The position numbers and the translations under genes were made by a program. From the NCBI GenBank assembly GCA_903844645.1, contig CAIMUP010000027.1:6547-70546 (forward strand): 64,000 nt of DNA, read 5' to 3'. The notes beneath the pieces were generated by a model, which made no database searches, had not been told where the DNA came from, and saw only the letters and a list, made by a program, of their open reading frames with translations. This DNA is from an uncultured Bacteroidota bacterium. GTDB lineage: Bacteria > Bacteroidota > Bacteroidia > AKYH767-A > JABDAW01. Of the stretch, positions 1,021 to 60,229 are shown piece by piece; the stretch's first letter is position 1, and each line of letters starts with the position of its first letter.

Positions 1021-1196
1021 TTTGGATTGCTCCTCCCCAAGTTTGGATTGTTCCTCCCCAAGCTTGGATTGCTTCTCCCCAAGCTTGGATTGTTCCTCCC
1101 CAAGCTTGGATTGTTCCTCCCCAAGCTTGGATTGTTCCTCCCCAAGCTTGGATTGCTCCTCCCCAAGCTTGGATTGCTCCATTCCAAGCTTGGAAT
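1021..1196. repeat. Tandem array of 21-bp units (ttggattgttcctccccaagc), about 8 copies; begins with an 11-bp-stem hairpin (ttggggaggag...ctcctccccaa)
   Basis: Direct reading of 1000-1235. It lies between the convergent ends of the lpxL-like gene and the giant T9SS gene. A degenerate copy follows at 1211-1235. Confidence 0.9.
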
Positions 1197-1339
1197 TGTT
1201 TAAAACCAATTGGTTTTGCTCCTCCCCAAACAGGGAATATTCCAAAAGAAAAAGGTTTTGCCATTCATCCCGAAGGGAAAAATGCAAAACCTTTTTGAAT
1301 AAGATGGATGAAATCTTAACGGGGAATGGTATTTAGGAG

Positions 1340-7300: not shown

Positions 7301-8473
7301 CAAGCTATTATCATAACAATACAATTCTGTAATTCCAGTAAATGCTTCAATGCCTATCATATCCTGTATTCCGAGTAAAGAAACATTAATTGCCCCATGA
7401 TATGCAGCAGCTTCATAGACTTCTATTTCATTGTTATGGTTTGTATTAATAGTAGTATCGCTCACCAATGCAGCTTTGAAAATAGAATCCTGAAAATAGA
7501 CTATATCTGGAGTGGGACAAAACAGGCTGAAAGATGCTGCATTATCTATATTAACTGAAGCCAGCCAATGGGCAGTTGCCCAGGCTACGTTGTCCACTTG
7601 TATGCAGGTCAGGTAGGGGTTACCATTGGCATAAAAGGTGGAATTTAAGGCGGCATTATTTCCATTGGCTATATTCAAATAAATAACACTATTATTGAAA
7701 CAATCGAAAAAAGTAAGTGCAGAGTTGTGGCTTGCATCTATACTGGATATATAATTATTCCAACAAATGAAATAAGTAAGCGCAGGGTTGTGGCTTAAAT
7801 CTATATCGGTTAATAAATTATTGAAACAGGTAAAATATGTAAGTGTTGGGTTATTACTTACATCTATATGTGTGAGATAATTATAGGTACAGCTAAGGTT
7901 GGACAGATTCAGATTATGGCTGACATCTAAGCTGGTCAGGTGATTTTGATCGCAATCAAGCATAAAAAGTTGGGTGTTATTACTCACATCTAAAGTAGTC
8001 AAGTTATTCTCAGAAATTTCTAAGGAATCTAAAACTGGATTATGACTTATATCTATGCTGGTTAGGTTATTATTGAAGGCATTAATATGAGTAAGAGAGG
8101 TATTGTTGCTAAAGTTTAAGCTGCTTAGACGATTTTCATAGCACCCCAGACGAATAAGTGCAGTATTGTGGCTCAAATCTAAATCATATAGTACATTGGT
8201 ACTACAATCCAGGTTTAATAAATTTATAAAAGCCTCTATACCGGTTAAGTCGTGAATGCCCAAATTCGAGACATTAATTCCATTTATCTCTGTTCCGATA
8301 AATGCTTCTGCCTCCGACACCTGAATTTCTCCATCACCATTCGTGTTAATGTCCAATCTTCCTACCAAATAAGCTTTAAAAGCAGGGTCAGGAATATTCA
8401 CGTTTTGACCAGCAGCATTCATTACCATCAAGAATGCCAGAACAAGAGTTACTGTTGTTAAGATTTGTTTCAT
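1340..8473 (-). CDS. Giant T9SS-secreted surface protein (2377 aa): signal peptide, 6 tandem modules (N-cap 'NIPDxxFKAxL..INTNGDGEIQ' + about 10 22-residue LRR-like repeats 'LDVSHNTALTxLxCxxNxLTSLDVS'), about 10 Cys-containing Ig-like domains, an FN3-like domain, and a Por_Secre_tail C-terminal domain
   Basis: Signal peptide MKQILTTVTLVLAFLMVMNAAGQ. The N-cap motif recurs six times. The Ig-like domains follow the pattern '...TFCxGGSVxLxAG..SYxWSNGATTQTITV...'. The C-terminus 'IYPNPAKDHLTIVF...LSEIPKGLYLVLMQNEDGVMQRKVVVE' matches the T9SS sorting-domain consensus. Confidence 0.85.
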   Translation of the reverse strand: MKQILTTVTLVLAFLMVMNAAGQNVNIPDPAFKAYLVGRLDINTNGDGEIQVSEAEAFIGTEINGINVSNLGIHDLTGIEAFINLLNLDCSTNVLYDLDLSHNTALIRLGCYENRLSSLNFSNNTSLTHINAFNNNLTSIDISHNPVLDSLEISENNLTTLDVSNNTQLFMLDCDQNHLTSLDVSHNLNLSNLSCTYNYLTHIDVSNNPTLTYFTCFNNLLTDIDLSHNPALTYFICWNNYISSIDASHNSALTFFDCFNNSVIYLNIANGNNAALNSTFYANGNPYLTCIQVDNVAWATAHWLASVNIDNAASFSLFCPTPDIVYFQDSIFKAALVSDTTINTNHNNEIEVYEAAAYHGAINVSLLGIQDMIGIEAFTGITELYCYDNSLNTLDVSHNTALTVLVCNHNNFNSLDVTQNTSLQTLDCSYNSIVHLDVSQNSNLVGLQCNGNSLVGLDVSHNSALGYLYCYSNPLFFLDVSHNTALNILGCSDNSLGVLDVSNNAGLSKLYCDYNNLTDIDISHNSALITFDCTHNSIFHLDVSVNTTLSNFYCSGNPVLNTLNIANGHNTDFSAFDASNNPDLTCIKVDDVAYATTTWTVGNGSIDSGASFSLNCACTAILNIPDANFKAALLANPAINTNGDNEIQVCEADAFTGTIDVNGLSIAQLAGIQNFPNITGLLCGGNTISTVDLSYNHALVYLYCDHNNFSSLDVSHNPALTTINCYNNMLTSIDVSNNPALTTLNCNYNSITNLDMSHNTSLTNLQCTNNALTNLTVANGNNTNMTTFSAINNAALSCISVDDTIWANANWTVSNFNIDASATFSLNCNCIVVVNIPDAIFKAYLVGRTDINTNGDGEIQVCEANAFAGDIQVDSRGIFDLTGIEAFPNIVMLDCYDNFILSLDLSHNTALTDLNCGRNILTTLDVSHNTALQYLRCYGNSMTTLDVTNNTALILFSTANNNLNSLNVANGNNTNITLFDATLNPNLSCITVDDIFYSSANWTVGNGSIDATASFSLNCAACAPIVNIPDANFKAYLLANTAINTNGDNEIQVCEATAFADYIYVPSLGITDLTGIEAFTGLATLYCYSNPIGSLDFSHNIALNTVYCSNNSLNSLNLMNCTALTYLECSSNSLTNIDFSQNTALTYIYCYDNMLSSLDVSNNAALQALVTYNNSLTMLDVSHNPLLNNFDCSFNTLTSLNLANGNNTNLEFFNAVNNPNLFCVQVDDVDYSTNYWIDNVDANAHFSLNCNCSDIVNIPNAAFKTALLADTAINTNGDGEIQFCEAEAFHGTMDVSHLFISSLTGIEAFTSLTGLICFNNYLNSFDISHNIALTYLDCSQNQISNLDVSNNTSLAELHCADDMLDNLDVTHNTALITLYCNNNIYSNYNNLISLDMSHNTALTYLDCSGNNSLSSLDVSHCTALTDLYCWNDLLTSINVTNNPALNTLYCYDNTVLSSLDLSHNIALTDLVCYDNSLNNLDVSHNTALLYLQCAYNNLTSLDVSLNTSLIELTPANNFINSLDVSNNTALTVLECNHNNISSLDVSHNPELIYFFCPYNDLHNLNVANGHNHNITTAHFWASHNPNLSCIQVDDIVYSTANWTVVSGDIDASESFSLNCTPCANPPTPIITSNGNTTFCDGGNVTLDAGTFTSYSWSNGATTQTITVASSGICGVTVTDANTCTGTASITVSINPNPTPVITSIGSTTFCDGGSVMLDAGTFISYSWSNGATTQTIITTIGGIYIVTVTNANTCTGTASIAVAVNPNPIPTIMGLTSTCAGTPVSLDAGSWISYLWSTSETIQLITTATGGAIQVTVTDGNGCTGVASTYVTINALPTPSIAPNGPTTFCDGGSVSLDAGSYASYLWNDGSSAETITAFGTQPYCVTVTDVNGCSGTTCLSVTVYSNLTAIITPNGPTAFCAGGSVALTASGGTAYSWSDGASTATINASASGTYSVTVSNGQGCSASASTTVTVYQNPIPTIIPNGPTTFCQGGSVLLNAGAYSSYLWSNGAITQSITVVASNPYRVTVTNAHGCTAAAAQINITVTPTITGLAIVGATTTCTGGNSSLSTNNTYSAYLWSNGATTQSITISATGIYYVTVSNGGNCSAAAHQSVTVLTAPIPNIISANLANICGGGNASLTASPVFAAYLWNTNATSQGIIINTGGSYSVTVTSVNGCTGMASTLIPGACNFPTFPVNATTNIAATTAMANWIQPTCYYGYTIRISKHNATIWSTHTISPNTHYTFSQLTHNTAYDWQIQANCNASGTVNSGFSAAQTFTTAPRMEEGDVASLATFNIYPNPAKDHLTIVFSSDKEQAYTLRLIDVMGRIMMNQNHTSVVGDNQIELNLSEIPKGLYLVLMQNEDGVMQRKVVVE

Positions 8474-8716
8474 GTTATTTATTATTAAAATTGTTTAAAA
8501 GATTCCATATTTATTTGGATTTGGCAAACCTACTAAAACATTCGACACTTCCGCTCGATGCAAAATAGGGTGTCCCCCGATCATCCATCAGCACCTTGTA
8601 ATTTCATTCATTTTTTTTAATTTTAATTGGATTAATATATATTAATTTTACTGTATTCTACTTGAAATCGCAGTGTTTGTAACTCCCTCCATCCCAGAAA
8701 GAGTTATCGCTGGCTT

Positions 8717-8864
8717 GGAAATAGTTATGGCTGCCGTGGAAATAGTTATGGCTGGCGTGGAAATAGTTGTGGCTGCCGTGGAAATAGTTATGGCTGGCGT
8801 GGAAATAGTTATAGCTGGCGTGGAAATAGTTATGGCTGGCGTGGAAATAGTTATCGCCAGCCCA
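8717..8864. repeat. Tandem array of 21-bp units (gaaatagttatggctggcgtg), about 7 copies, in a divergent promoter region
   Basis: Direct reading. It lies between the divergent starts of the 2377-aa gene (8473) and the SBBP gene (9053). The terminal unit carries an inverted variant (gctggc/gccagc). Confidence 0.9.
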
Positions 8865-10837: not shown

Positions 10838-11060
10838 TAACCGACTTCTGTTTCGACCTAAACCATGTGCTTTACTACGAAACAGAAGTCTGCTTCGGTC
10901 TAAAGCATGTGGTTTACTGCGAAACAGAAGTCGGCTTCGGTCTAAACCATGTGGTTTACTGCGAAACAGAAGTCGGCTTCGGTCTAAACAACATGGTTTA
11001 CTACGAAACAGAAGTCGGCTTCGGTCTAAACAACGTTGTTTAGACCGAAACAGAACTTCC
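10838..11060. repeat. Tandem array of 42-bp units (gtttactgcgaaacagaagtcggcttcggtctaaaccatgtg), about 5 copies, bounded by inverted partial copies
   Basis: Direct reading. The first partial unit 'gtaaccgacttctgtttcgacctaaacc' and the last 'gtttagaccgaaacagaac' are inverted relative to the internal units. There are no spacers, so it is not a CRISPR array. Confidence 0.9.
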
Positions 11061-11240: not shown

Positions 11241-11351
11241 TTATATGGGATAAAACCTCCATCGCGTAGCGACTCCAGCATCGCATCCTGAATTAATCAA
11301 AAACCGCTTGCCCCACTTTTTAATACTTTTGCATCCCTAAGAATAACAATT

Positions 11352-14870: not shown

Positions 14871-15138
14871 ATTGTAATACTTCCCTGTGACATTGTAATA
14901 CTTCCCTGTGACATTGTAATACTTCCCTGTGACATTGTAATACTTCCCTGTAACATTGTAATACTTCCCTGTAACATTGTAATACTTCCCTGTCACATTG
15001 TAGTACTTCCCTGTCACATTGTAGTACTTCCCTGTGACATTGTAATACTTCCCTGTGACATTGTAGTACTTCCCTGTGACATTGTAATACTTCCCTGTGA
15101 CATTGTAGTACTTCCCTGTGACATTGTAGTACTTCCCC
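14871..15138. repeat. Tandem array of 21-bp units (cattgtaatacttccctgtga), about 13 copies
   Basis: Direct reading. Intergenic, between the ABC ATPase stop and the next TPR gene. Confidence 0.9.
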
Positions 15139-18099: not shown

Positions 18100-18243
18100 C
18101 AATCGCGTACATGCCGTTACAATTCGCGTACATTGACTCGGAATTAGCGTACATGCCGTTAGAATTAGCGTACATTGACTCGGAATTAGCGTACATTTCA
18201 TGACATAAACACGTGTTTTTGTCATGAAATGTACGCTAATTTT
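18100..18243. repeat. Tandem 21/42-bp array (gcgtacatgccgttacaattc / gcgtacattgactcggaatta) ending in a ~58-bp near-perfect palindrome
   Basis: The palindrome 'aattagcgtacatttcatgacataaacacg|tgtttttgtcatgaaatgtacgctaatt' spans 18185-18242. It lies between the DUF922 start and the nnr stop. Confidence 0.9.
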
Positions 18244-22409: not shown

Positions 22410-22439
22410 GTCCGTATTGCATGGAGTGATTCCACTCTT

Positions 22440-22793
22440 TTATTTTCCCTTGCCGGCAGGAGCTGCAGCGATTTTCGGGTTCAGCGATTTCGTCGCATCC
22501 ACAGCTATAGAAGTTTTCTCTATCTTCAATCTGTTTTGTCCTTCAACCTCGATGATATAGGTGCCATTTTCATCGTCAATATCAAGAATCTTTCCGTGAA
22601 TACCGCCTATGGTAATCACTTTATCGCCCTTCTTGATGGTTTCCTTAAATTCTTTTTCCGTCTTTGCCTTCTTCATTTGAGGACGTATCATAAAGAAATA
22701 GAATACGATACCCATCATCGCAATCATGATTAAGGTGGACATCCCGCTGCCACCGCCTGGGGTGCCTTGTAATAAAATTGTACTTAGTTGCAT
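22440..22793 (-). CDS. yajC: Preprotein translocase subunit YajC
   Basis: 'ILLQ..GGGS.MSTLIMIAMMGIVFYFFMIRPQ.KK' matches the YajC consensus. Confidence 0.85.
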   Translation of the reverse strand: MQLSTILLQGTPGGGSGMSTLIMIAMMGIVFYFFMIRPQMKKAKTEKEFKETIKKGDKVITIGGIHGKILDIDDENGTYIIEVEGQNRLKIEKTSIAVDATKSLNPKIAAAPAGKGK

Positions 22794-22850
22794 ATTAATA
22801 TATATTATTTATTGTTTATTCCTTGTTAATTCTTCCCTGATTTTCTCCTA

Positions 22851-23632: not shown

Positions 23633-23828
23633 GTATATATCACATGATATATAGCAATCGGGAGTTCGCCATCGCAATATATCATATGATATATTGCGAT
23701 CCCGAGCATAATAAAAGTGCATATCATATGATATATTGCAATCCCGAGCATAATGAAAGTGCATATCACATGATATATTGCAATCCCGAGCATAATGAAA
23801 GTGCATATCATATGATATATTGCGATCC
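23633..23828. repeat. Tandem array of 42-bp units (atatcatatgatatattgcaatcccgagcataatgaaagtgc), about 4.5 copies; each unit holds the palindrome atatcatatgatatat
   Basis: Direct reading. The first unit is partly inverted (gcaatcgggag against ctcccgat...). Confidence 0.9.
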
Positions 23829-23984
23829 CTAACTCCCGAACGTAGTAAACCATCTGATTTTGCCTTTTGGGGAATTCCGGAAATGTGCATACCATTTCGT
23901 TTAGACCGATGCCGACGAGCAGATTTTTGCATCTCATCTGATTTTTCCCAATCCCGACGAGTGGGTTTTGATAAATTTTCAAGT

Positions 23985-27850: not shown

Positions 27851-28069
27851 TGCATGTAATCTCGCTTTTGTCGCGAGTAAAATTGCTTTTATTGCATGTA
27901 ATATCCTTTTTGTTGGATGTAATTTCATTCCCGCTGCATGAAACGTCATTCCGGTTGCATGAAATGTCATTCCGTCTGCATGTAATCTCCTTTTTGTTGC
28001 ATGTAATTTCATTCCCGTTGCATGAAATTTCATTCCCGTTGAGTGAAATTTCATTTTTCACTCAACGGG
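27851..28069. repeat. Tandem array of 21-bp units (tgcatgtaatttcattcccgt), about 10 copies, ending in a 13-bp-stem hairpin (ccgttgagtgaaa...tttcactcaacgg)
   Basis: Direct reading. The hairpin at 28034-28069 lies about 60 bp upstream of the ATG at 28131. Confidence 0.9.
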
Positions 28070-28851: not shown

Positions 28852-28984
28852 GGATATTAGTTTTTATTAACAAAATCGGGGTTGGATATTTTGAAATGTT
28901 AAAAGAATTTCTTGCTGGAGAACGAAATTTTTTGTAATTTTGTACCCTTAAATAAAAGGAGTATTTCCAAGAAACTAAATTACC

Positions 28985-33754: not shown

Positions 33755-33819
33755 GGCAATGTTGCCATTTAATCAAACTATCCTTTATAACAATAACGCT
33801 GTTCAGGCATTGAATAACG

Positions 33820-34138
33820 TAAGTCGGGGACTGACTTACATCATTCAATCCCCGAACAACGAAGTTCGGGGACTGAATGATGTACTTCGGGGACTGAATG
33901 ATGTACTTCGGGGACAGAATGATGTACTTCGGGGACTGAATGATGTAAATCGGGGACAGAATGATGTACTTCGGGGACTGAATGATGTAAATCGGGGACT
34001 GAATGATGTACTTCGGGGACCGAATGATGTACTTCGGGGACTGAATGATGTACTTCGGGGACTGAATGATGTACTTCGGAGACCGAATGATGTACTTCGG
34101 GGACTGAATGATGTACTTCGGGGACCGAATGATGTAAT
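33820..34138. repeat. Tandem array of 21-bp units (ggactgaatgatgtacttcgg), about 13 copies, preceded by two short hairpins (gtaagtc-ggggact-gacttac; ccccgaac-aacgaa-gttcgggg)
   Basis: Direct reading. It fills the gap between the 1589-aa gene stop and the next T9SS gene start. Confidence 0.9.
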
Positions 34139-34252
34139 CCTTACACACAAATGCCCATTCCTTATATACAATAGCGAAGTCCGGGTATATGACAGGGATG
34201 TTATCTTGGAAAATCTTAAATAAATTATAGTAACGAATAAAAATTAAAGACA

Positions 34253-36552: not shown

Positions 36553-37392
36553 TCAAATTGGAAAATCAATAATTGAAATATCTAAACCATTCTCTGCAAT
36601 AACAGATTTCTTAAATTCAACATGTGGAATATTGATTCTTGCAATTTTAATAATTTCATTAATATTTTCTTCAGTCATTAATGAGCCGAAAATAATTTCT
36701 TTATAAGCAATTGAAGGCAATGTTTTTGTCCTTGTTTCTCTGGTATATGGAATTTGAGACCACCGAAACGCCCTATATTCTTCTTCAAAATTCCAGTTAT
36801 CTAATTTGTTAAAAATTTGCGTAAGCATTTGTTCCTCAAAACACATTCTTGGATACGGCATAATTTTCGGTAATTCATTACGATATTTAACAACATCACC
36901 ACCACCTACAAATTTAAACAAGATTTTTGACTCGAATCCAATACAAAAGCCTTTATGATTATTGCTATACTTTTTCCACATTTCAAAATTACTTGGGTTA
37001 GCAGTTAAACTGAGAATTCCAACAGTACTGTCAAATTCATTAAAACTCTCCCCTTCAAGTTTTTTTAAGTATTCTTTGTTTTTAAAAGGATTGCTGCTTG
37101 CAAAATCACTTGCATTTTTTCTGCGCTGTATTCTACTCAATCCTTCATTAGACTCTTTTGATAATTCCGCATGTCTTTTTTTAATTTCGTCTCTTTTTAA
37201 CAAATCATATCTTGTTGGATTTTTACAGTCAAAAGGATCCTCAAACCCTGAAGCTGGAGACAAATAGACTTGTAAATCTTGAATTATAGATTTATGAAAC
37301 TTATCACCCCAATCTCTATATTTATAAATTGGATTGGGGAATTTTAGGTCTTCGTATTTAATTTGTACTGTTTTGCATTTTGATTTCATCAC
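36553..37392 (-). CDS. DUF2971-family protein
   Basis: 'IYKYRDW...YLSPASGFEDPFDC' matches the DUF2971 'FNDPFE' signature. The gene is markedly AT-rich compared with its surroundings. Confidence 0.55.
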   Translation of the reverse strand: MMKSKCKTVQIKYEDLKFPNPIYKYRDWGDKFHKSIIQDLQVYLSPASGFEDPFDCKNPTRYDLLKRDEIKKRHAELSKESNEGLSRIQRRKNASDFASSNPFKNKEYLKKLEGESFNEFDSTVGILSLTANPSNFEMWKKYSNNHKGFCIGFESKILFKFVGGGDVVKYRNELPKIMPYPRMCFEEQMLTQIFNKLDNWNFEEEYRAFRWSQIPYTRETRTKTLPSIAYKEIIFGSLMTEENINEIIKIARINIPHVEFKKSVIAENGLDISIIDFPI

Positions 37393-37517
37393 GCAAAACT
37401 ATAAAAAAGCCCGCATGTATGAGATTTCTTGGTCTAATAAAATTTCCTTCTCCAAGGATTCTACACTTAGAAACCCGCCGAATCCTTGAAAAACCCAATT
37501 TTGCCCCCCCTCACTCC

Positions 37518-37783
37518 CAACTTTGGTCGTCTCGGGTTTAACTTTAGCCTCCACGGGTTTGACTTTGGTCGTCTCGGGTTTAACTTTAGCCTCCACGGGT
37601 TTGACTTTGGTTGTCTCGGGTTTAACTTTAGCCCCCAAGTCTCCAACTTTAGCCCCCTCGGGTTTGACTTTAACGCCCACGAGTCCAACTTTAGCCCCCT
37701 CCGGTCCGACTTTAAGACCCACTGGTTTAACTTTAATCGCCTCCATTTTAACTTTACTCCCCCTGCCTCCAACTTTAATATTC
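37518..37783. repeat. Tandem array of two interleaved 21-bp units (gactttggtcgtctcgggttt / aactttagcctccacgggttt), about 12 copies
   Basis: Direct reading. Lies upstream of the DUF2971 gene start. Confidence 0.9.
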
Positions 37784-37810
37784 TCAAGTCAGATAAATAT
37801 TGGCAAGTAA

Positions 37811-38085
37811 ATTCCACAACACTCATGTAAATCTGGAACACTCATGTAAATTCCACAACACTCATGTAAAACCCAAGAACACTCATGTAAGCATCAAGAA
37901 CAGTCATGTAACTACCAACAACACTCATGTAAGCACCAACAACACTCATGTAAAACCCAAGAACACTCGTGTAACTCCCAACAACACTCATGTAAGTACC
38001 AAGAACATTCGTGTAACTACCAAGAACACTCATGTAAGCACTAAGAACACTCATGTAATTACCAAAAACACTCGTTACAAAACCC
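37811..38085. repeat. Tandem array of 21-bp units (aacactcatgtaaaacccaag), about 13 copies; only about 25 bp from the preceding array
   Basis: Direct reading. Two unrelated arrays sit back-to-back between the DUF2971 gene and the fadD-like gene. Confidence 0.9.
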
Positions 38086-38110
38086 TAAACCTTAGACTTT
38101 AAACCTTAAA

Positions 38111-39907
38111 CTATTCTTCATAAATCCTCTCAATCAACCCCGCATTCCTCCCCATAATAATCTTCCTCTTCAACTTCATAGTAGGTGTCAAATCGCCTGA
38201 TTCCACAGTCCATTCAGCAGGTAGCAACTCAAACTTCTTGATTTGTTCCACATGCCCAAGGTCGTTATTAAACCTTGTAACTTCTTCCTGTATTCTTTCA
38301 ATCACAGAAGCATTTTTGCAAATATCTTCATGACTATTCGGCAATGCAATTCCTTTTATCTTAGCCCAATCTTTTATGTAATGAATATCAGGAATAATCA
38401 ACGCAGCAGGGAATCTCTGGTTCTCACCGATAACCATTATCTGCTCGATGAAAGGCGATTCCTTAAACTTATTTTCGATAGCCTGTGGCGCAATATATTT
38501 CCCTCCCGAAGTCTTGAATATCTCCTTCTTCCGATCCGTGATCTTCAAAAACTTCCCATCAAACATCCCGATGTCGCCGGTATGAAAGTAGCCATCCTTA
38601 TCAATGGCTTCGGCAGTTAAATCAGGGCGTTTGTAATATCCCAGCATCACATTCGGACCTCTCACAATGATCTCTCCATCCTCTGCTAGCTTAACTTCAA
38701 CATCCTTAATTACCGGACCAATAGTCCCGAATTTACAATCCCCCTTATCCAAAGTATTGACAGAAATAACAGGTGAAGTTTCCGTTAATCCATACCCCTC
38801 AATAACAGGAATCCTCGCCGCCCAAAAGATGCGTTGTAAGCGAGGTTGAAGCGCAGCGCTGCCGGTAACAATCCCACGAATATTCCCTCCCAAAGCCTCT
38901 CTCCATTTGCTAAAGATAAGTTTGTTGGCGATCTTCAACTGGAACTCGTACCACCAACCATTCGCCCCATCAAATTCATATCGCAATCCCAAATCAACTG
39001 CCCAGAAGAAAAGAAATTTCTTAATGCCTTTCTGTTCCTTTCCCTTGTTAATAATCTTTGCATAAACCTTCTCAATCAATCGCGGCACAGCAGAGAAAAA
39101 ATAGGGTTTAATCTCCCGAATATTATCCCCGATCTTATCAATACTCTCTGCATAACAAATCGTTGCGCCAAGATAAATATACATGTAAACAATAGTCCGC
39201 TCGAAGATGTGATTGATAGGCAAAAAACTCAGCACCTTCTCCCGAAAAGAAACCGGCACAAGATGATCGCAAGAAATAATATTACTCAAGATATTCGCAT
39301 GAGACAACATCACTCCTTTCGGCGTGCCAGTAGTGCCCGAAGTATAAATGATAGTAGCCAGATCATTCCCCTTGATGCTATCTTTCAGCCTGTTTAATTT
39401 CTCCAAATCAACATGCTGATTGCCTAAATCTCTAACCTCTGTCCAATGCTTTGCACCATCAATTTTATTAAAAGTATAAACAGCTTTTATTGTGGTAGAA
39501 TCTTTAAGGATACTTTGAACCTTATTATATAAAATCTCATCCGAAACAAACACCAACTTCACCTCCGCATCATTAAAGATAAACTTAAATTCCTCCTCAC
39601 TAATGGTAGGATAAATCGGAACATGCACAGCCCCGATCTGCAACATAGCCATGTCCAAATAATTCCATTCAGGACGATTATTCGAGATGGTAGCAATCTT
39701 ATCTCCAACACCAATCCCCAATGAAATCAAGCCATAGGAGAGGCTTTCAGAATTCGCAACAAATTCATCAATGGTATGATTAATCCATTTTCCATCTTCT
39801 TTGTAAACAAAAATATCTCCCTCTTTGTATGTCTCTTTGAGGCGTGTCAGCAGATCGAACAAGCGTGTTGGTTGGTTGGTAATGTTCATTATGTTTATTG
39901 AGTTCAT
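38111..39907 (-). CDS. Long-chain fatty acid-CoA ligase (AMP-dependent synthetase/ligase family)
   Basis: AMP-binding signature 'IYTSGTTGTPKGVMLSHANI', 'YGLTE' motif, C-terminal 'GDLTPTMKLKR'. Confidence 0.85.
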   Translation of the reverse strand: MNSINIMNITNQPTRLFDLLTRLKETYKEGDIFVYKEDGKWINHTIDEFVANSESLSYGLISLGIGVGDKIATISNNRPEWNYLDMAMLQIGAVHVPIYPTISEEEFKFIFNDAEVKLVFVSDEILYNKVQSILKDSTTIKAVYTFNKIDGAKHWTEVRDLGNQHVDLEKLNRLKDSIKGNDLATIIYTSGTTGTPKGVMLSHANILSNIISCDHLVPVSFREKVLSFLPINHIFERTIVYMYIYLGATICYAESIDKIGDNIREIKPYFFSAVPRLIEKVYAKIINKGKEQKGIKKFLFFWAVDLGLRYEFDGANGWWYEFQLKIANKLIFSKWREALGGNIRGIVTGSAALQPRLQRIFWAARIPVIEGYGLTETSPVISVNTLDKGDCKFGTIGPVIKDVEVKLAEDGEIIVRGPNVMLGYYKRPDLTAEAIDKDGYFHTGDIGMFDGKFLKITDRKKEIFKTSGGKYIAPQAIENKFKESPFIEQIMVIGENQRFPAALIIPDIHYIKDWAKIKGIALPNSHEDICKNASVIERIQEEVTRFNNDLGHVEQIKKFELLPAEWTVESGDLTPTMKLKRKIIMGRNAGLIERIYEE

Positions 39908-39941
39908 TAAGATTAATTAGTTTTGCAAAAATAGAAAAGCG

Positions 39942-43677: not shown

Positions 43678-44706
43678 TTATACCAAAGGAGGTGTCGGAG
43701 CACTCGAAGAACTCTTCCCCTTAGCCAATATCCCCGTCACATGAGCATCATCAGTAGCACTCAAACTCTCCACTATTACATTATGCCCGAATACACCACC
43801 AAAATCATCAGGAATAGACAATTTAATTTCACTGTCGGGAGCTAAAACATAGCCACCTGTAGCGGGTACCGTCGTCCCATCAGAAATAAAAACTTTCACG
43901 CTCGCCAATACACTATGATTCCTCAAAGTCAAAGTATCACCAGGCAAATATTTATTATGAAACCAAGCCACATGTTCCCCTGGGTGCAACACATCTTCTT
44001 CTGTCTTCATCGTCTTTCCGAGGTCAATAATTTTCCTTCCGTTATCGTAAGTCGTAACAAAAGTTCCGTGAAGCAGTCTATAAGTATGAATCAAATTATC
44101 CTGCTTTTTCATTGCCTTTTTCAACAGTTTCATTTGAGCCACGATGTCGCCGGTAGCAGCACTTTTCACCACCTGTGCTATCCTGAATTGAGGATTCGCC
44201 AAAGTCAATGCCGCAATGTCAGAAGTATAAGTAGTAATCTGTAAAGGAGTGATATTAACATTCGGCAACTCCAAAACAGGAATCGCATTTACTTTACCTA
44301 AAATAAAATTCATTTTCACCAAAGCCTCCTGAATAGCACACTGTGTCAGATCAGTATAAGTATAATGCATCGCCTCCGCCAAAACAGGTTGTTCAGGAGT
44401 AGTATTCTCCGCCCAAGCCTTCGTCCCGATATTCATGTGAACACCCATCGTAGCAGTATCTTTCCACAATTGCTCCTTGTTCGTGGTATTGCCATGCAGG
44501 TCAGCTTCCGTCAATCCTGCATCCAAAAGAATCTGGTCAAATATCTGTTGCACCTTGGCCTTAGCCTGCACCACAAAAGTATTTCCAATCCATATTGCAC
44601 TGTTGGTTGGTATGTCCAAAACTCCCCGCTCCACGGGTACCATTCTCAAATAATTTAATTGCTTGTCGGTCATTGTATTTAATTTTAACGGAGCGAAGAT
44701 AAACAA
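43678..44706 (-). CDS. Hypothetical protein
   Basis: 342-aa ORF with its own terminator hairpin. A second in-frame Met (MTDKQLNYL, 44673) is a possible start. No recognisable motifs. Confidence 0.5.
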   Translation of the reverse strand: MFIFAPLKLNTMTDKQLNYLRMVPVERGVLDIPTNSAIWIGNTFVVQAKAKVQQIFDQILLDAGLTEADLHGNTTNKEQLWKDTATMGVHMNIGTKAWAENTTPEQPVLAEAMHYTYTDLTQCAIQEALVKMNFILGKVNAIPVLELPNVNITPLQITTYTSDIAALTLANPQFRIAQVVKSAATGDIVAQMKLLKKAMKKQDNLIHTYRLLHGTFVTTYDNGRKIIDLGKTMKTEEDVLHPGEHVAWFHNKYLPGDTLTLRNHSVLASVKVFISDGTTVPATGGYVLAPDSEIKLSIPDDFGGVFGHNVIVESLSATDDAHVTGILAKGKSSSSAPTPPLV

Positions 44707-44766: not shown

Positions 44767-45018
44767 TAGTATTTGCATGTCAGAACCACTATTTACTGGT
44801 CAGCATCAAATATTTGGTAGGCAGCATTAAGTATTTACTGGTCAGCATCGTATATTTGGTTGGCAGGAACAAGTATTTAGTAGGCAGCAACGAGTATTTG
44901 AAGGTCAGCCTCAAGTATTGACAGGTCAGCATCGTCTATTTGAAGGTTAGCACCAAGTATTTGGTAGGCAGCATCAAGTATTTAGTCGTCAGCACCATGT
45001 ATTTGAATGTCAGCACCA
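44767..45018. repeat. Tandem array of 21-bp units (agtatttggtaggcagcatca), about 12 copies
   Basis: Direct reading. Lies between the start of the 43678..44706 gene and the stop of the FAH-family gene. Confidence 0.9.
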
Positions 45019-45025
45019 ACAAAAA

Positions 45026-52227: not shown

Positions 52228-52332
52228 TTTCTTAAATTTTAATTGTTAATTTATGGTTATTACTATTTATTTTATTACTAATTCACTGATAATGAAGATC
52301 ATAAAATGTCTTTTACCTATCTCATCCATCTT

Positions 52333-52538
52333 GTTATTTGGTAAATAACAACTGTTATTTACCAAATAACAACTGTTTTCTGCCAAATAACAACTGTTAT
52401 TTTCCAAGAAACAACTGTTATTTTTCCGGCAACAGTTGTTATTTTCCAAAAAACGACTGTTATTTTTCAGCCAACAGTTGTTATTTTCTAAGAAACAACT
52501 GTTATTTTAGAGATAACACCTGTTGTTTTCCAAAAAAC
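52333..52538. repeat. Tandem array of 21-bp units (ccaaataacaactgttatttt), about 9 copies; each unit holds the palindrome aacaactgtt, and some copies are inverted
   Basis: Direct reading. Lies upstream of the 51589..52227 gene start. Confidence 0.9.
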
Positions 52539-52745
52539 AATCCCTCCAAACCCGTCTCTCTTTTTTCCAACCTGTTAAAGAACCTCTACTTTTTTCTGTG
52601 GGATTTTTTACCCTCCTTCTCTTCGTATAATTTTTCTTCGGAAGGGCAGTAGAAAGATTGTCATTTCAATTTCCTACTCAACTCTGAAAGTTATCGGCGG
52701 CAAATATAGAAAAGTTTTCGGGAATGGAATGGGAGAGGGAAAGAT

Positions 52746-53777: not shown

Positions 53778-56700
53778 TTACTGAACCATAATCTTAGTTT
53801 GTAATGTCTGTCCACCTGTTTCGAGGCTTAAGAAATATACACCCTTAACGATGTTTGCAGTATTTAATTCAACTTGGTTATCGCCGATTGCAGAAGCATT
53901 CACTTGGCTCATGATAACTCTTCCTGTAAGATCTACTAAACGCAAGGTATAGTTGTCAGATGTTTGAGAATTGAAGACAACAGTAGCATGGTCAGTAGCT
54001 GGATTTGGATAAACATTGAAAGCAGAGATTGTTTCGATGTCGCCATCAGCCATTCTTGCAGCAGTGAATAATTGTGGAGCACTTGGACCTGAATTCGTTG
54101 TTGTGCTACAGTTAGTTTGGATAGTCCATGAATAGTTATGTCCATGAGTTAAACCAGAGAACGTGTAGTGAGAATTCGGTGCGAAAGTGAAAGTAGCAAC
54201 TGCCAATGTGTTCAAGTCTGTACGAACGATTGTATAACCAGAAACGCATGAAGGCTGATTCCAAGAAACATAAGCAGAGTTCGTAGTGATGCTTGAAGTA
54301 GCCATGTTAGTAGGCAATACGCAATCAACACTTAAATTAACACATGCAACTCCTGAACAACCGTTAGTGCTTGTAATTGTTACACAATACAATCCTGGAT
54401 GACCTGGAGTAATTGTGATAGAAGCTAAAGTAGCACCTGTGCTCCAGTTGTAAGCATAACCAGCTTGAGCAGCTAAAGTTACGTTACCTGTGTTAGCGCA
54501 ATACGTAGCAAGACCGGTTGTGGTAATGTTAGTATTAACACCTGTTAACACCTGTACAGAGTGAGTAGCTGTTCCTGTGCAACCACAAGCATTGGTAACG
54601 GTTACTGTGTAACCAGCAGAACCAGAAGCAATAGTAGTTGTTTGAGTAGTAGCGCCATTGCTCCATAAATAAGCAGCATAGCCAGCACCAGCATTAATGG
54701 TTACAGGACCACAATTTGCGAAAGAAGGAGAAGCTGTCATTGTAACAACTGGTCTTGGGCAGAAACTGGTAGTAGTGTAAGAAGCTGTACCGCTACATCC
54801 ATTTGCATTAGTTACAGAAACAGTGTATGTTCCTGCAGCAGTAATGTTAATGTTTTGAGTAGTAGCACCAGTGCTCCATAAGTAAGTAGCGAAACCAGAG
54901 TTAGCACTTAATACCATTGAAGAGGCAGTACAAGGAGCAGGAACTGGACCAGCAGTGATTATTGGAGTTACGAAATCGGTTACTGTAACAGTAGCACAAA
55001 CAGTACCTGTACAACCATTGGAATAAGAAACGGTTACGCAATAAGTTCCTGAAGTGGTTATAGTAGTTCCATAATCTGCAACTGTAGAGCCATTACTCCA
55101 AATATAAGAAGTATAATGTGGATTGTAAATAACATTTAAGTTAACAGAACCACCTTGACAGAAAGTCAAAGGACCATTTGAAGTAATATTTGGAACAGGT
55201 GCCACACCAACAGTAATTGAATGGTGAGCAGTACCTGTACAACCTGCAGCATTAGAAACAGTTACTATGTAATTTCCTGTATTAGTAACAGTGATAGATT
55301 GGGTTGTTGCACCAGTACTCCATAAATAACCTGCATAAACACCAGTAGTTAAAATAGAAGAACCACCTTGACAGTCATAAACAGCACCAGAGATGGTAGG
55401 AATTGGATTCTGACTAACTGTAACAGATTTGCAAGCAGTTCCTGTACATCCGTTACCATCAGTAACAGTTACACAATAGGTACCAGCAGCAGTAACTGTA
55501 ATAGAAGAAGAATGAGAACCATTGCTCCATGTATAAGAAGCCCAAGTACCAGCATTTAATGTTCCTGAACCAGGAGCACAAATTTGAGATGGACCAGAGA
55601 TAGTTGGAGTTGGAGCAGAATTAATCGCTACTGATTGACAAGCTACACCTGTACATCCGTTACCATCGGTTACAGTTACACAATAGTTTCCTGAAGTAGT
55701 AACAGTTGCAGAAGCATTAGTTCCACCATTGCTCCATGAATAAGAAGCATAAGTTCCAGTGCTTAAAGTAATAGAACCACCGCAAGAACTGGAAGGACCA
55801 GAAACAGCAGGAGTTGGAGCAGAATGAACGCTTACTTGTTGACAAGCAACACCTGTACAACCATGAATATTTGCAACAGTTACACAATAGTTACCACTAG
55901 ATGTAACAGTAATAGAACCATTAGTTCCACCATTGCTCCATGAATAAGAAGCCGCTGTTCCTGTACTTAATGTTAAAGAACCAGAGCATGAACTTGTAGG
56001 TCCAGAGATACTTGGTTGAGGATTATCATAAATTGTAACGCCTACACATGTAGAACCTGAACAACCATGACCATCAGTTACAGTAACACAATTTTGTCCT
56101 GTAGAACATGCTGAAATAGTTTGGTTAGTTCCTCCATTTGACCAGTTGTAACCAGCATAAGAACCAGCGTCTAAAGTTACGCAAGAACCAGCACAAGCAG
56201 TAGTAGCACCAGAGATAGAAGGAGTTGGGTTATCATAAATTGTTACATCAACACAAGTAGAACCTGAACAACCGTTACCATCAGTTACAGTTACACAATT
56301 TTGTCCTGTAGAACAAGCTGTAATAGATTGGTTTGTTCCTCCATTTGACCAGTTGTAACCAGCATAAGAACCAGCATCTAAAGTTACGCAAGAACCTGCA
56401 CAAGCACTAGTAGCACCAGATATAGAAGGAGTTGGATTATCATAAATTGTAACATCTGTACAAGCAGTTCCCATACATCCATTACCATCAGTAACCATTA
56501 CACAATAGTTACCTGATGAACATACAGTAGTATTTTCGGAATTATCTCCTGTTGTCCAAGCGTAATCAGCCCAAGAACCTGCATCTAAAGTTACGCAAGA
56601 ACCAGAACAAGCAGTAGTAGTACCAGAAATAGAAGGAGTTGGATTGTCATAGATAGTTACCCACTGACAAGCTGAACCCATACAACCGTTACCATCAACT

Positions 56701-58520
56701 ACAGTAACACAATAGTTATCTGAAGAACAAGCAGAAGTTGTTGGTGTCATATCTCCATTGCTCCAAGAATAACCATCCCAAGAACCTGCATCTAAAGTAA
56801 CACAAGAACCTGCACAAGCAGAAGTATTTCCAGAGATTGAAGGAGTTGGATTTGCATTAAAAGAAACAAATTGGCTAGCTGAACCCATACAACCATTTCC
56901 ATCAGTAACAGTTACTATTTCGGTAGCAGCACCACTTGTAAAGGTATAACTTTCATCTGTTGAAAAATAACCTGTAATACTATTATACCAAGAATAACTT
57001 GCCCAAGAACCAGCATCCAAAGTTACTGTATTACCATCACATACTGTTGTAGGTCCATTAGATGTAATAACTGGAACTGGATTAGTATTAACTGTTACAT
57101 CCATACAATCTTCACCTGTACATCCATTAGGATCTGTAATAACTACACAATATGTTCCTGAAGTAGTAGCTGTAACAGTTTCGTCTGTTCCGCCATTATA
57201 ATTCCAAGAATAATTATCCCATGTTCCGCCATCTAAAACAACTGAACCTCCATCGCAGAAAGTAGTGTTACCACCAGCTGTGATATGTGGATGAGGTGTT
57301 GGATTAACAGTTACATCTTGACAAGCAACGCCTGTACAACCATTATCATCAGTTACTGTACAGCAGAATGTTCCGCCATTGTCTAAAGTAATCATTTCAG
57401 CTGATGAACCGTTGCTCCAGCTATAAGAAGCATAAGTTCCTGCATCTAAAGTTACATTTCCTCCATTACAGAATACTGGAGGTGAGCTATAAGTAAGTGT
57501 AGGTGTTGGAGAATCATGAACCACTACATCAATACAACCTACGCAAGTACATCCACCTGCATCAGTAACAGTACAGCAATAAGAACCTGCAGTTACAGCA
57601 GTAAGAGTTTGAGAATGTGAACCATTGCTCCAGGTATAAGCTGCCCAAGAACCAGCATCTAAAGTTACATTACCGCCTGAACAGAATGATAAATTACCAG
57701 AAGCGGTGATTGAACAAGAAATGTTGTTGTTTCCACCTGTTACATCATGGCAAGCAGCGGCTGTACAGCCCCAGAAAGAAGTAGCAGTTACGCAATAAGT
57801 GCCTGCTGATGTTACATCAATACTTGGTGTGTTTGCGCTGTTGCTCCAAGAATAAGCATTAACTCCCCAGCTACCATTAGCAGTAAGGGTTGCATGTCCG
57901 CCTCCGCAATTCAAATTGCCTGTTTGGCTGATTGAAACTGATGGATTTGGCAATACAATAATAAAACGATACGCGACGCCTGTACATCCCCAAACATTGG
58001 TTACTGTACAAGAATACCAACCGATGTTGGTAGCCGATGTGGTTTGTGTGGTAGCACCGTTGCTCCACATGTAAGAAGAATACCCTGCGCCTGCATCCAA
58101 ATTCATGTGACCTGCGCACCAGTTAAATGGTCCGCCGATGTGAATGACTGGATGTGGACGTGGATGAACCGTTACGTGAATCGAAGCTACACCTGTGCAG
58201 CCGTTCGAAGCAGTAACCGTTACATGGTACGTGCCGGTGAAAAACGCATTAATACTTTGCGTGTTTGCACCTGTGTTCCAATGATAATGGGAATAATTCC
58301 CTGTGCTTAAATGCACATGTCCACCAGCACAAATGGTCGTCGGACCATTCGCTGTAATGGTTGGAGGTACCGGAATAGTACATTCCGAATTCACCGAAAT
58401 TTCGGTGTTGATAGAAGGTGTCCCATTTCCTTCTGTAGTCGGGGTTTTTGCAGACAGGTTAGTGCCGAATAAGGCAAGAACCAAGCAAAGGATGACTGGT
58501 AAAAGTTTTAATTTGTTCAT
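53778..58520 (-). CDS. Giant T9SS-secreted adhesin-like protein (1580 aa): about 18 Cys-containing Ig-like repeats, FN3-like domain, Por_Secre_tail
   Basis: Signal peptide. Repeats of '...TxCxGxxVTLDAGS.A.Y.WSNG...TIT...G.YCVTVTDGNGC.G..C..VT....P.P' including near-identical copies. C-terminal 'ISAFNVYPNPATDHATVVF...KGVYFLSLETGGQTLQTKIMVQ'. Confidence 0.85.
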   Translation of the reverse strand: MNKLKLLPVILCLVLALFGTNLSAKTPTTEGNGTPSINTEISVNSECTIPVPPTITANGPTTICAGGHVHLSTGNYSHYHWNTGANTQSINAFFTGTYHVTVTASNGCTGVASIHVTVHPRPHPVIHIGGPFNWCAGHMNLDAGAGYSSYMWSNGATTQTTSATNIGWYSCTVTNVWGCTGVAYRFIIVLPNPSVSISQTGNLNCGGGHATLTANGSWGVNAYSWSNSANTPSIDVTSAGTYCVTATSFWGCTAAACHDVTGGNNNISCSITASGNLSFCSGGNVTLDAGSWAAYTWSNGSHSQTLTAVTAGSYCCTVTDAGGCTCVGCIDVVVHDSPTPTLTYSSPPVFCNGGNVTLDAGTYASYSWSNGSSAEMITLDNGGTFCCTVTDDNGCTGVACQDVTVNPTPHPHITAGGNTTFCDGGSVVLDGGTWDNYSWNYNGGTDETVTATTSGTYCVVITDPNGCTGEDCMDVTVNTNPVPVITSNGPTTVCDGNTVTLDAGSWASYSWYNSITGYFSTDESYTFTSGAATEIVTVTDGNGCMGSASQFVSFNANPTPSISGNTSACAGSCVTLDAGSWDGYSWSNGDMTPTTSACSSDNYCVTVVDGNGCMGSACQWVTIYDNPTPSISGTTTACSGSCVTLDAGSWADYAWTTGDNSENTTVCSSGNYCVMVTDGNGCMGTACTDVTIYDNPTPSISGATSACAGSCVTLDAGSYAGYNWSNGGTNQSITACSTGQNCVTVTDGNGCSGSTCVDVTIYDNPTPSISGATTACAGSCVTLDAGSYAGYNWSNGGTNQTISACSTGQNCVTVTDGHGCSGSTCVGVTIYDNPQPSISGPTSSCSGSLTLSTGTAASYSWSNGGTNGSITVTSSGNYCVTVANIHGCTGVACQQVSVHSAPTPAVSGPSSSCGGSITLSTGTYASYSWSNGGTNASATVTTSGNYCVTVTDGNGCTGVACQSVAINSAPTPTISGPSQICAPGSGTLNAGTWASYTWSNGSHSSSITVTAAGTYCVTVTDGNGCTGTACKSVTVSQNPIPTISGAVYDCQGGSSILTTGVYAGYLWSTGATTQSITVTNTGNYIVTVSNAAGCTGTAHHSITVGVAPVPNITSNGPLTFCQGGSVNLNVIYNPHYTSYIWSNGSTVADYGTTITTSGTYCVTVSYSNGCTGTVCATVTVTDFVTPIITAGPVPAPCTASSMVLSANSGFATYLWSTGATTQNINITAAGTYTVSVTNANGCSGTASYTTTSFCPRPVVTMTASPSFANCGPVTINAGAGYAAYLWSNGATTQTTTIASGSAGYTVTVTNACGCTGTATHSVQVLTGVNTNITTTGLATYCANTGNVTLAAQAGYAYNWSTGATLASITITPGHPGLYCVTITSTNGCSGVACVNLSVDCVLPTNMATSSITTNSAYVSWNQPSCVSGYTIVRTDLNTLAVATFTFAPNSHYTFSGLTHGHNYSWTIQTNCSTTTNSGPSAPQLFTAARMADGDIETISAFNVYPNPATDHATVVFNSQTSDNYTLRLVDLTGRVIMSQVNASAIGDNQVELNTANIVKGVYFLSLETGGQTLQTKIMVQ
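56020..56460. repeat. Near-identical 213-bp (71-codon) tandem duplication inside the 1580-aa gene
   Basis: 'atcataaattgt[a/t]ac...agatagaaggagttgg' occurs twice in succession with only a few substitutions. Lower-identity copies extend to about 56900. Confidence 0.8.
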
Positions 58521-59282: not shown

Positions 59283-59317
59283 AATCTATTTTATTGACTA
59301 ATTTTATACGTAATAAG

Positions 59318-59478
59318 GTACAATGTTGCCAACATTGTACTTCTTTTCATTAACATCGTTCCACCTTTCATTGACATCGTTCCTTTTGTCATTAACATCG
59401 TTCCACTTGTCAATAACATCGTCCTAAATTCCATTAACTTCGTCCTACTTTTCATTAACTTCGTTCCACAATTTAATA
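59318..59478. repeat. Tandem array of 21-bp units (cattaacatcgttccacttgt), about 7 copies, beginning with an 11-bp-arm palindrome (gtacaatgttg c caacattgtac)
   Basis: Direct reading. Lies upstream of the 58620..59282 gene start. Confidence 0.9.
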
Positions 59479-59790
59479 CCATCGCCAAGCCCCCTTTGGT
59501 AAGGGATTCTATCGTTGAGGCATTAAAATTTAAGGTCATCATGTATGTTTTGTAAGGCGTTATTTTGTTATTTAGCGGCTGCAAAGATAAGGAATGGAAT
59601 CATACCATCCAAATTTTTCTTCATATTTAATGATAATTTATTCTTGGAAACCATAAAATACAACTTGAAATAAGTAAAAAAGCAACCGACAACCTTCCGT
59701 TGCCGATTGCTAATTTTTAATTCGCTATTGCTTCTCGTGGAATTCGTCATCAAAAAATGCGCTCTATATATAAGGAGTGTTTTGACGGAA

Positions 59791-60177
59791 TTAGAATGGT
59801 AAATCGTCTCCAGTAGCTAACGGAGTTTCCGTTTCGGCAGGTATCGGCGGCGCACTGGCGATGCTTGGTGCAGCACTTCCAGAAGCTGAAACCAGTTCCA
59901 CTTTCCAAGCTTCGAGGTTCGTAATATAACCCGATTTACCATCTTTTTCCCAATGGCGACCCCTCACATTGAAGGTAACTTTCACTTCCATCCCTTTCTC
60001 GAACGGGTCAATGATGGCGCATTTATCATTGTTCAATTGAAATTTGATTTGGTTCGTGGACATGAAATCCTGCCTTTGTTCCACCAACTCCACGACAAAT
60101 TCGCGGTTCTTAAATTTTTCTGTCTTCTGGACAGCATCAAATTTTTCGATTAATTTTCCTGTAAATTCGTAACTCAT
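59791..60177 (-). CDS. DUF3127 domain protein
   Basis: 'MSYEFTGKLIEKFDAVQKTEKFKNREFVVE...FQLNNDKC..ID.F..G..V.V.FN..GR.W' matches the DUF3127 pattern. Acidic/Pro-rich tail. Confidence 0.6.
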   Translation of the reverse strand: MSYEFTGKLIEKFDAVQKTEKFKNREFVVELVEQRQDFMSTNQIKFQLNNDKCAIIDPFEKGMEVKVTFNVRGRHWEKDGKSGYITNLEAWKVELVSASGSAAPSIASAPPIPAETETPLATGDDLPF

Positions 60178-60229
60178 AATCTTTAGTATTTAATAATTTA
60201 TTTGCGGGGCAAAGATAAATAAACTTTCG

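Follow-up and report, generated by a model that had tools for sequence, protein, structure and literature searches.

The 64,000-nt stretch of contig CAIMUP010000027.1 analysed here (the window), which belongs to an uncultured Bacteroidota bacterium, contains two tandem arrays of 21-bp units placed back-to-back in the intergenic gap between a gene for a FadD-like long-chain acyl-CoA ligase and a gene encoding a DUF2971 protein. These arrays, named A and B (A9 and A10 in the numbering of the window, arrays 9 and 10 of an earlier note on this DNA), are probably non-coding members of a class of bacterial repeats of constant size and variable sequence, spread along the genome rather than specific to this locus. 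The array pair is new and the class already described, with this lineage seeming to be an extreme case. Our results showed that the arrays are repeats at the DNA level, confined to intergenic spacers and with fast turnover between species, that they change by whole units or by 42-bp superunits, with one unit type being able to replace another within an array, and that whole arrays can be duplicated in inverted orientation, with homologous arrays lying at different loci in different organisms.

The gap extends over 721 bp (37390–38110), between the stop of the FadD-like gene (38111) and the ATG of the DUF2971 gene (37389). The earlier note had located two back-to-back arrays here, and they were found, far above chance expectation, with 13 and ~13 units, respectively; it had them fill the whole gap, of which they cover 76%. 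Array B begins 32 nt beyond the FadD-like stop codon, and about 15–25 bp separate both arrays. In the first 118 bp of array A, two unit types alternate (gactttggtcgtctcgggttt / aactttagcctccacgggttt), as the same note described. The array is near-perfect at this end, proximal to DUF2971, and its units decay towards position 37792 and array B. The sequence ACTTT is invariant in 13 out of 13 units, while other columns are up to 54% non-consensus, and this run of invariant columns exceeds that expected by chance (run test, P = 0.016). The unit of array B, read on the + strand, consists of the core AACACTCATGTAA followed by 8 less-conserved nucleotides, columns 14–16 and 21 being the most variable ones. 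This core appears 11 times with at most one mismatch, versus 0.12 occurrences expected, and nowhere else in the window. The three leftmost units of array B are spaced by 19–20 bp instead of 21. Regarding the claim that the two arrays are unrelated, it proved nearly right: no extended inverted repeat links them, but the best match between a unit of A and the reverse complement of a unit of B reached 14 of 21 positions, which is borderline (null P ~0.004 per pair).

A search with Tandem Repeats Finder (TRF) identified 13 separate non-coding arrays in the 64 kb, including A and B, each with a period of 21 or 42 and with a different unit (Table 1), and no other period was found among the non-coding arrays of the window. 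All 13 are intergenic, though the non-coding share of the DNA outside the arrays is only ~11%. Of the 13 intergenic gaps measuring 300 bp or more, 12 contained an array, and together the arrays sum to 2.7 kb, or ~29% of the non-coding DNA; the region 22410–22850 is the sole intergenic gap over 300 bp without one. When conservation was analysed column by column, the variance/mean ratio was 1.7–2.9 in five out of six arrays tested, and 0.99 in A13. The best circular matches between units of different arrays followed the shuffled null, with the exception of a few borderline pairs.

The genes around these arrays are of ordinary chromosomal type, together with type IX secretion cargo, which assigns the organism to Bacteroidota, and include those for a lipid A acyltransferase, RsmE, CoaE, the E2 subunit of a 2-oxoacid dehydrogenase, and NAD(P)HX repair. 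Immediate neighbours of arrays include rsmE, a PaaZ-like gene (divergent gap), and housekeeping genes (convergent gaps), and the genes downstream of the arrays have average guanine plus cytosine (GC) content. The proposal that the arrays mark or insulate foreign DNA was therefore not supported, because many of the other arrays flank ordinary core genes. Similarly, the description of the A/B locus as the densest in repeats of the window applies only to its copy count, as comparable arrays are present in other gaps.

The arrays continue beyond the window. The next 10 kb of the same genome, available in contig L099, contain 3–4 more arrays at three loci, giving a density of ~200 per Mb over 74 kb (window plus the L099 extension). 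A congener with 89% FadD identity (contig L088) presented 4–5 arrays in 10 kb, again in back-to-back pairs. Since arrays are this dense in L099 and L088 but only ~5 of 21 bp were found in 1.3 Mb of relatives at 55–60% identity, these arrays are strongly amplified in this genus.

Bacterial tandem repeats of 20–21 nt with constant size and variable sequence, non-coding and species-specific, were described by Subirana and Messeguer (PMC8161180), who named Firmicutes, Cyanobacteria, and Actinobacteria as hosts, related the 20–21 nt to two helical turns, and proposed roles in protein polymerisation on DNA, nucleoid stabilisation, or as small RNAs. The arrays described here share with them the strict length of 20–21 nt and thus of two turns, a sequence of its own for each array or family, at least 4 copies, a non-coding nature, and species-specificity with poor conservation in relatives. 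A period of 21 or 42 bp was found in the window, in L099, and in L088 alike. In contrast, the host is an uncultured freshwater Bacteroidota, and the density is roughly 30–40 times that of the richest Bacillus listed in PMC8161180, whose table gives 22–29 arrays per 4.4–5.5 Mb for the genomes "rich in 21 nt repeat". Alternating 42-bp superunits and back-to-back or mirror-image pairs are also prominent here, and a characteristic short motif common to the repeats of one species, as reported for many species though not for all, was not found among our 20 arrays, a sample of low power. Another non-coding minisatellite of a Bacteroidota genome, BrickBuilt of Porphyromonas gingivalis, is described (PMC4596501) as one sequence family carried by a mobile MITE, a miniature transposable element with inverted repeats, at many loci. 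Compared with that account, each locus of the window has its own sequence, and neither terminal inverted repeats nor dispersed copies were seen. A dispersed repeat of the repetitive extragenic palindrome (REP), bacterial interspersed mosaic element (BIME), or MITE types was rejected within the window, as the core of array B is found at its own locus only and the units differ from array to array.

Comparison with other species revealed how quickly these arrays turn over. In relatives with FadD identities of 89, 83, 76, and 74%, the divergent NMO-fadD pair was kept, and in the four of them another gene follows 4–120 bp after fadD, with no arrays and no DUF2971 gene there. The earlier note had taken conservation of the gene and the arrays in all relatives as an outcome that would speak against its reading; this is not what was found, because neither of them is conserved. 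The congener L088 carries different arrays at different places, so there is no positional conservation at 89% FadD identity. Positional orthology of arrays between species was likewise rejected, as the 331-aa proteins of the window and L088 are unrelated.

A scan of metagenomes with two array B cores recruited three other arrays (contigs L097, L095, and L096), all of which retain the core. The L097 array is 84% identical to array B, with specific variable segments in common, and it lies upstream of a homologue (71% nucleotide identity) of the window gene at 43678–44706. Homologous genes are thus preceded by different arrays, A11 in the window and a B-like array in L097. In L095 and L096, units of the type GAACACTCATGTAAGATGGAA are interspersed with blocks in which a diverged unit type keeps to the same register, which shows that one unit sequence can give way to another without a change of period. 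Concerning the gene itself, the 331-aa protein encoded at 43678–44706 (− strand) had no Pfam, NCBIfam, or PADLOC match. In L097 (74–2285), its homologue directly precedes a gene for a 368-aa C5 DNA cytosine methyltransferase, which suggests that the 331-aa protein could be the restriction endonuclease of a restriction–modification (R-M) pair. The window gene has no methyltransferase partner, and is followed by low-GC genes (0.30–0.32) encoding a 595-aa TPR protein and a 202-aa protein.

A further kind of rearrangement was detected at positions 17274–17537 of L099, ~4.7 kb past the right end of the window in the same genome, where pdxA and an M20 peptidase gene converge on an intergenic gap. 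Here, two back-to-back 21-bp arrays form a 264-bp mirror-image palindrome with cores CGGTACATT / AATGTACCG, and the mirroring extends to the variable parts of the units. L088 (2647–3164 and 5487–5705) and a more distant relative (L045, 12762–13286) also contain pairs of different 21-bp arrays placed back-to-back. The units of L088 carry inverted cores (GCAGCCG...CGGCTGC; TGCATTGCA / TGCAATGCA). A general polarity, with the young end of each array towards the downstream gene, was rejected, as it was suggestive in A7, A9, A11, and A12 only.

Units would be gained and lost through slipped-strand mispairing or unequal recombination. The main rival of our reading holds that the arrays are neutral or selfish minisatellites, by-products of slippage and unequal recombination tolerated only in intergenic DNA, where they do no harm, and with no function at the DUF2971 locus. 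Their 21-bp period would either have been inherited, with the arrays spreading by duplication, inversion, and recombination and their sequences later drifting by concerted evolution, or stem from a mutational bias in the replication or repair machinery of the lineage. The change of unit type within L095 and L096 with the period kept, the inverted duplication in L099, the homologous array at another locus in L097, and the lack of conserved positions at 89% FadD identity are all in its favour, as are the arrays of convergent gaps, in which promoters are not expected (A1 and L099 17274–17537), and the finding of no common motif, RNA structure, or curvature signal. On the contrary, descent does not explain that the 20–21 nt size recurs in unrelated phyla (PMC8161180), and conservation as uneven as that of array A would be unexpected in old, diverged units. 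In addition, none of the arrays is inside a gene, despite a unit length divisible by 3 and the frequent tolerance of in-frame insertions. We regard this neutral explanation as possible but rather doubtful.

The DUF2971 gene has the lowest GC content of the window (0.299 vs. 0.409 for the whole window). Its closest homologue is 47% identical, with homologues scattered across Bacteroidota, and the protein gave a full-length match (1.1e-93) to the PADLOC defence candidate PDC-S31, being thus a candidate single-gene phage-defence protein. Because of its GC content, the distance and scattered distribution of its homologues, and the PDC-S31 match, the gene was probably acquired, in agreement with what the earlier note had proposed, and in line with its absence after fadD in the four relatives above. 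The identities of both flanking genes given there were recovered with Pfam (Table 1). The FadD-like protein also matched NCBIfam models of FadD-type ligases, but under the model cut-offs, and its 592-aa product is recorded in several metagenome assemblies.

The ~130 bp between array A and the DUF2971 gene contain a tract of seven C, an inverted repeat, and a −7 box, TAGTTTTG (Table 1). TAnnTTTG is the established consensus of Bacteroidetes sigma-A promoters, and TAGTTTTG is likely the core promoter of the DUF2971 gene, arrays A and B being situated about 120–690 bp upstream of it. The inverted repeat, with a perfect 9-bp core (CAAGGATTC/GAATCCTTG), lies between the arrays and this promoter, and was not called as a canonical intrinsic terminator. 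TAnnTTTG was also found ~5–40 nt upstream of many other start codons of the window (for example 39918–39925 +, 39926–39933 −, 28935–28942 +, and 11324–11331 +), making it usable as a promoter marker here, although its total count in the window is not above the shuffled expectation. Arrays A and B themselves lack the −7 motif, and neither intrinsic terminators nor sigma-70-type promoters were found in the arrays above shuffled expectation.

Variation at the locus was analysed in same-species contigs 99.7–100% identical to the window (L081–L087, L099, and L100), all from short-read metagenome assemblies. They differed in length at two sites only: the young end of array A, by one 42-bp superunit, and the homopolymer, with either C7 or C9. 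The long form of array A is found in the window and L082, and the short one in L081/L084 and L085; in turn, seven C are present in the window and L085, and nine in L081, L082, and L083. Because all four combinations of array A form and C-tract length occur, the data suggest recurrent change at both elements, with short-read assembly error being possible.

These data bear on a role as a contingency (phase-variation) switch, in which DUF2971 expression would vary stochastically in the population with the copy number of array A and the length of the neighbouring C7/C9 tract. Near-identical strains differing by one superunit and by 7 or 9 C in the four combinations would fit it, and the downstream gene is a candidate defence gene. 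Genes for defence are often phase-variable, as established for R-M systems. The locus also resembles contingency loci and promoter variable-number tandem repeats in its whole-unit length polymorphism among very close strains and in its vicinity to a gene of the defence/surface class. Nevertheless, the units are of 21/42 bp instead of 1–7 bp, the variable elements are located outside both promoter spacing and the open reading frame (ORF), over 100 bp upstream of the −7 box, with the arrays ending 119 bp upstream of it, and a 42-bp change keeps the helical phase. Moreover, array B and other arrays showed no copy-number differences, most of them being length-stable among the sampled strains, and lengths of repeats and homopolymers are the most error-prone features in short-read metagenome assemblies. 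A switch of this kind is, in our opinion, very unlikely.

Several other identities were considered and discarded. Protein coding was rejected because variation is arranged in blocks of columns and is not 3-periodic, and open frames appear at the level expected by chance for stop-free 21-mers. A coding heptad (7-aa) repeat was excluded by the lack of synonymous or third-position bias in unit variation, and a hidden heptamer ancestry of the cyanobacterial short tandemly repeated repetitive (STRR)/TAACTGA type (PMC4679880) by the lack of excess self-identity at lag 7. Public annotations nevertheless place genes over the arrays, of 154 aa on A8 (33759–34223, +), 70 aa on array B (37842–38054, −), and 79–115 aa over array A (37399–37746, −). 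These 70–154 aa "genes", which correspond to stop-free frames of 21-bp repeats, are almost certainly spurious, a practical point for annotation.

Regarding RNA, the arrays could be transcribed into long untranslated regions (3' or 5') or into separate small RNAs, offering multivalent protein sites or sponges, or working as antisense regulators. Consistent with transcription, no intrinsic terminator separates the fadD stop from the arrays, the sole hairpin coming after array A. A 52-nt class of repeats is reported to be transcribed in B. coagulans, and a small-RNA role was proposed (PMC8161180, PMC8625621). Structured RNA was rejected, however, as no Rfam match was obtained and neither strand folds better than shuffled sequences (z of +0.66 and +3.5, the + strand folding worse), and a long duplex between A and B was discarded, no inverted repeat linking the two. 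Arrays also occur in both orientations and in convergent as well as divergent gaps. An RNA role thus seems decidedly unlikely; like phase variation, it is less likely than neutral minisatellites.

The period of two turns (2 × 10.5 bp) also invites an explanation in terms of intrinsically curved DNA, with phased bends organising the nucleoid or activating promoters. Curvature was computed with two wedge models. In both, the predicted curvature of random units made tandem is highest at a 21-bp period, and arrays A3, A8, A10, A11, and A12 fall in approximately the lowest 6% (0–5.8%) of the genomic background for the end-to-end ratio. Selection for curvature was rejected in these models, though, as the curvature of the real units does not exceed that of tandemised 21-mers taken at random from the genome, the units being, if anything, straighter (Mann–Whitney P = 0.048 and 0.37), and array A itself being predicted as straight (quantile 0.90–0.99). 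The curvature explanation is therefore largely refuted in silico, and we find it hardly tenable.

Repeats in clustered regularly interspaced short palindromic repeat (CRISPR) arrays measure 23–47 bp and alternate with unique spacers of comparable length, and cas genes usually accompany them. In our case, the whole unit is 21 bp and its variable part of 3–8 nt corresponds to diverged copies and not to unique inserts, so a CRISPR array was rejected; no cas genes were found among the scanned proteins of the window. A phage origin was rejected too, as the units of arrays A and B had no match in viral contigs.

What the anatomy of the arrays does resemble is a series of phased protein-binding sites. 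Iterons and centromere arrays, such as the 22-bp iterons of R6K or the 43-bp sopC repeats of F, consist of a conserved core plus a spacer in 4–12 copies. The likeness lies in the direct repeats, which measure ~17–22 bp, or 43 bp where a palindrome is included, and are spaced two or four helical turns apart. In contrast to these systems, neither a Rep or Par gene, nor DnaA boxes, nor an AT-rich region for unwinding lies near the arrays, which present thirteen sequences in an ordinary chromosome, with no viral-contig match for the units of A and B. An iteron-type replication origin was rejected, given the FadD-like and DUF2971 flanks, the location in the chromosomal core, and the presence of 13 different arrays. 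LytTR regulators, in turn, bind 9-bp direct repeats separated by 12 bp (PMC2766830), a geometry matched by the 9–10 bp cores found here, 11–12 bp apart with a 21-bp period. Known LytTR sites consist of two repeats directly upstream of a promoter, whereas the arrays have 5–13 repeats and lie over 100 bp away from the −7 box, and the distinct cores are too many for one-to-one regulators.

By analogy with these iteron and LytTR systems, each array would expose 5–13 short cores on the same face of the helix, onto which a DNA-binding protein could load cooperatively. In the case of arrays A and B, a platform of this kind would stand directly after the fadD stop and 120–690 bp upstream of the putative core promoter of the DUF2971/PDC-S31 gene, and because of this position between the end of fadD and the promoter it could tune DUF2971 expression or buffer it against read-through from fadD. 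A phased binding platform, as suggested in the earlier note, plausibly fits the 21-bp period, the uneven variation among columns, and the conservation of the array B core across species. The neighbour gene in L097 is only 71% identical to its window homologue at the nucleotide level versus 84% for the array, which also argues for our reading of the arrays.

A number of observations weigh in the opposite direction. To our knowledge, no protein binding these arrays has been described, and neither LytTR nor any other candidate regulator was found among the scanned proteins of the window; in addition, thirteen cores in 64 kb would need far more specificities than the genome likely encodes. Contiguity of conserved columns was significant in array A only, and no 5- or 6-mer was common to more arrays than in column-shuffled controls, in a set of 20 arrays of low power. 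At the same-species scale, copy number was constant for arrays B, A7, A8, A12, and A13, and most arrays are not visibly hypervariable; three of the contigs break within array A, and short-read assemblies can collapse or truncate repeats. Finally, the conservation of the array B core across organisms could reflect recent transfer and not selection. On balance, a function of the arrays as protein platforms may be entertained only tentatively.

A more radical proposal is that the lineage possesses a dedicated mechanism that creates or maintains arrays of 21-bp period in nearly every long intergenic spacer. Candidates would be a DNA-binding protein that polymerises in steps of two turns and so measures the period, or an enzyme adding units in a templated way. 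We consider this unlikely; if true, the arrays would be a previously unrecognised layer of organisation of the chromosome and its transcription units, and no natural case for finding the machinery would be more extreme than this lineage. Public metagenomes already show the gain and loss of superunits, blockwise replacement, mirror duplication, and relocation next to different defence-type genes. The lineage is thus a good comparative system for asking why the period is exactly two helical turns and which gene family co-occurs with array-rich genomes.

Table 1. Tandem arrays of the window and features of the locus of arrays A and B.
Feature	Coordinates	Strand	Description	Basis or context
Array A1	1022–1229		unit TTGGATTGCTCCTCCCCAAGC	convergent gap
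Array A2	8697–8854		unit GAAATAGTTATGGCTGGCGTG	divergent gap
Array A3	10858–11055		42-bp alternating units	upstream of rsmE
Array A4	14871–15137		unit ATTGTAATACTTCCCTGTGAC, 12.7 copies	
Array A5	18105–18197		42-bp alternating units	
Array A6	23679–23829		42-bp units with palindrome ATATCATATGATAT	
Array A7	27851–28058		unit TGCATGTAATTTCATTCCTGT	
Array A8	33865–34136		unit TTCGGGGACTGAATGATGTAC, 13.0 copies	copy number same in L081
DUF2971 gene	36553–37389	−	278 aa	Pfam DUF2971, 4e-06
−7 box TAGTTTTG	37394–37401	−	match to Bacteroidota −7 motif TAnnTTTG	4 nt upstream of DUF2971 ATG
Inverted repeat	37439–37502		23-nt arms, 78% complementary, 18-nt loop	repeat search
Homopolymer	37504–37510		C7 (+ strand), G7 on gene strand	~115 bp upstream of DUF2971 start
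Array A (A9)	37520–37792		13 in-register 21-bp units	TRF and register alignment
Young part of array A	37520–37637		2.8 copies of 42-bp superunit	TRF period 42, 97% matches
Array B (A10)	37807–38078		~13 units of 21 bp	TRF 12.9 copies, score 282
FadD-like gene	38111–39889	−	long-chain acyl-CoA ligase	Pfam AMP-binding, 2.6e-75
Array A11	44790–45019		unit TATTTAGTGGTCAGCATCAAG	upstream of 331-aa gene
Array A12	52332–52540		unit TGTTATTTTCCAAATAACAAC, hairpin-like	
Array A13	59343–59469		unit CTTTTCATTAACATCGTTCCA	

Some minor features of the window were also recorded. The apparent 947-bp gap at 59283–60229, which contains A13, holds a 128-aa DUF3127 gene below the ORF cut-off, and the public calls for L099 add two ORFs of 82 and 60 aa, the former over A13. 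A strong terminator-like hairpin is located at 59711–59681 (−), with A13 downstream of it and 60 bp upstream of the next gene start. Coding repeats of 204–213 bp, different in kind from the 21-bp arrays, were detected at 3171–3569 and 55441–56912, within two giant type IX secretion cargo genes (1340–8473 and 53778–58520, respectively). Finally, a repeat with a period of 63 bp (2.8 copies, 76% matches) is found at 7691–7869, in the 5' part of the ORF of a 2377-aa LRR protein; no other repeat whose period is a multiple of 21 lies outside intergenic DNA.

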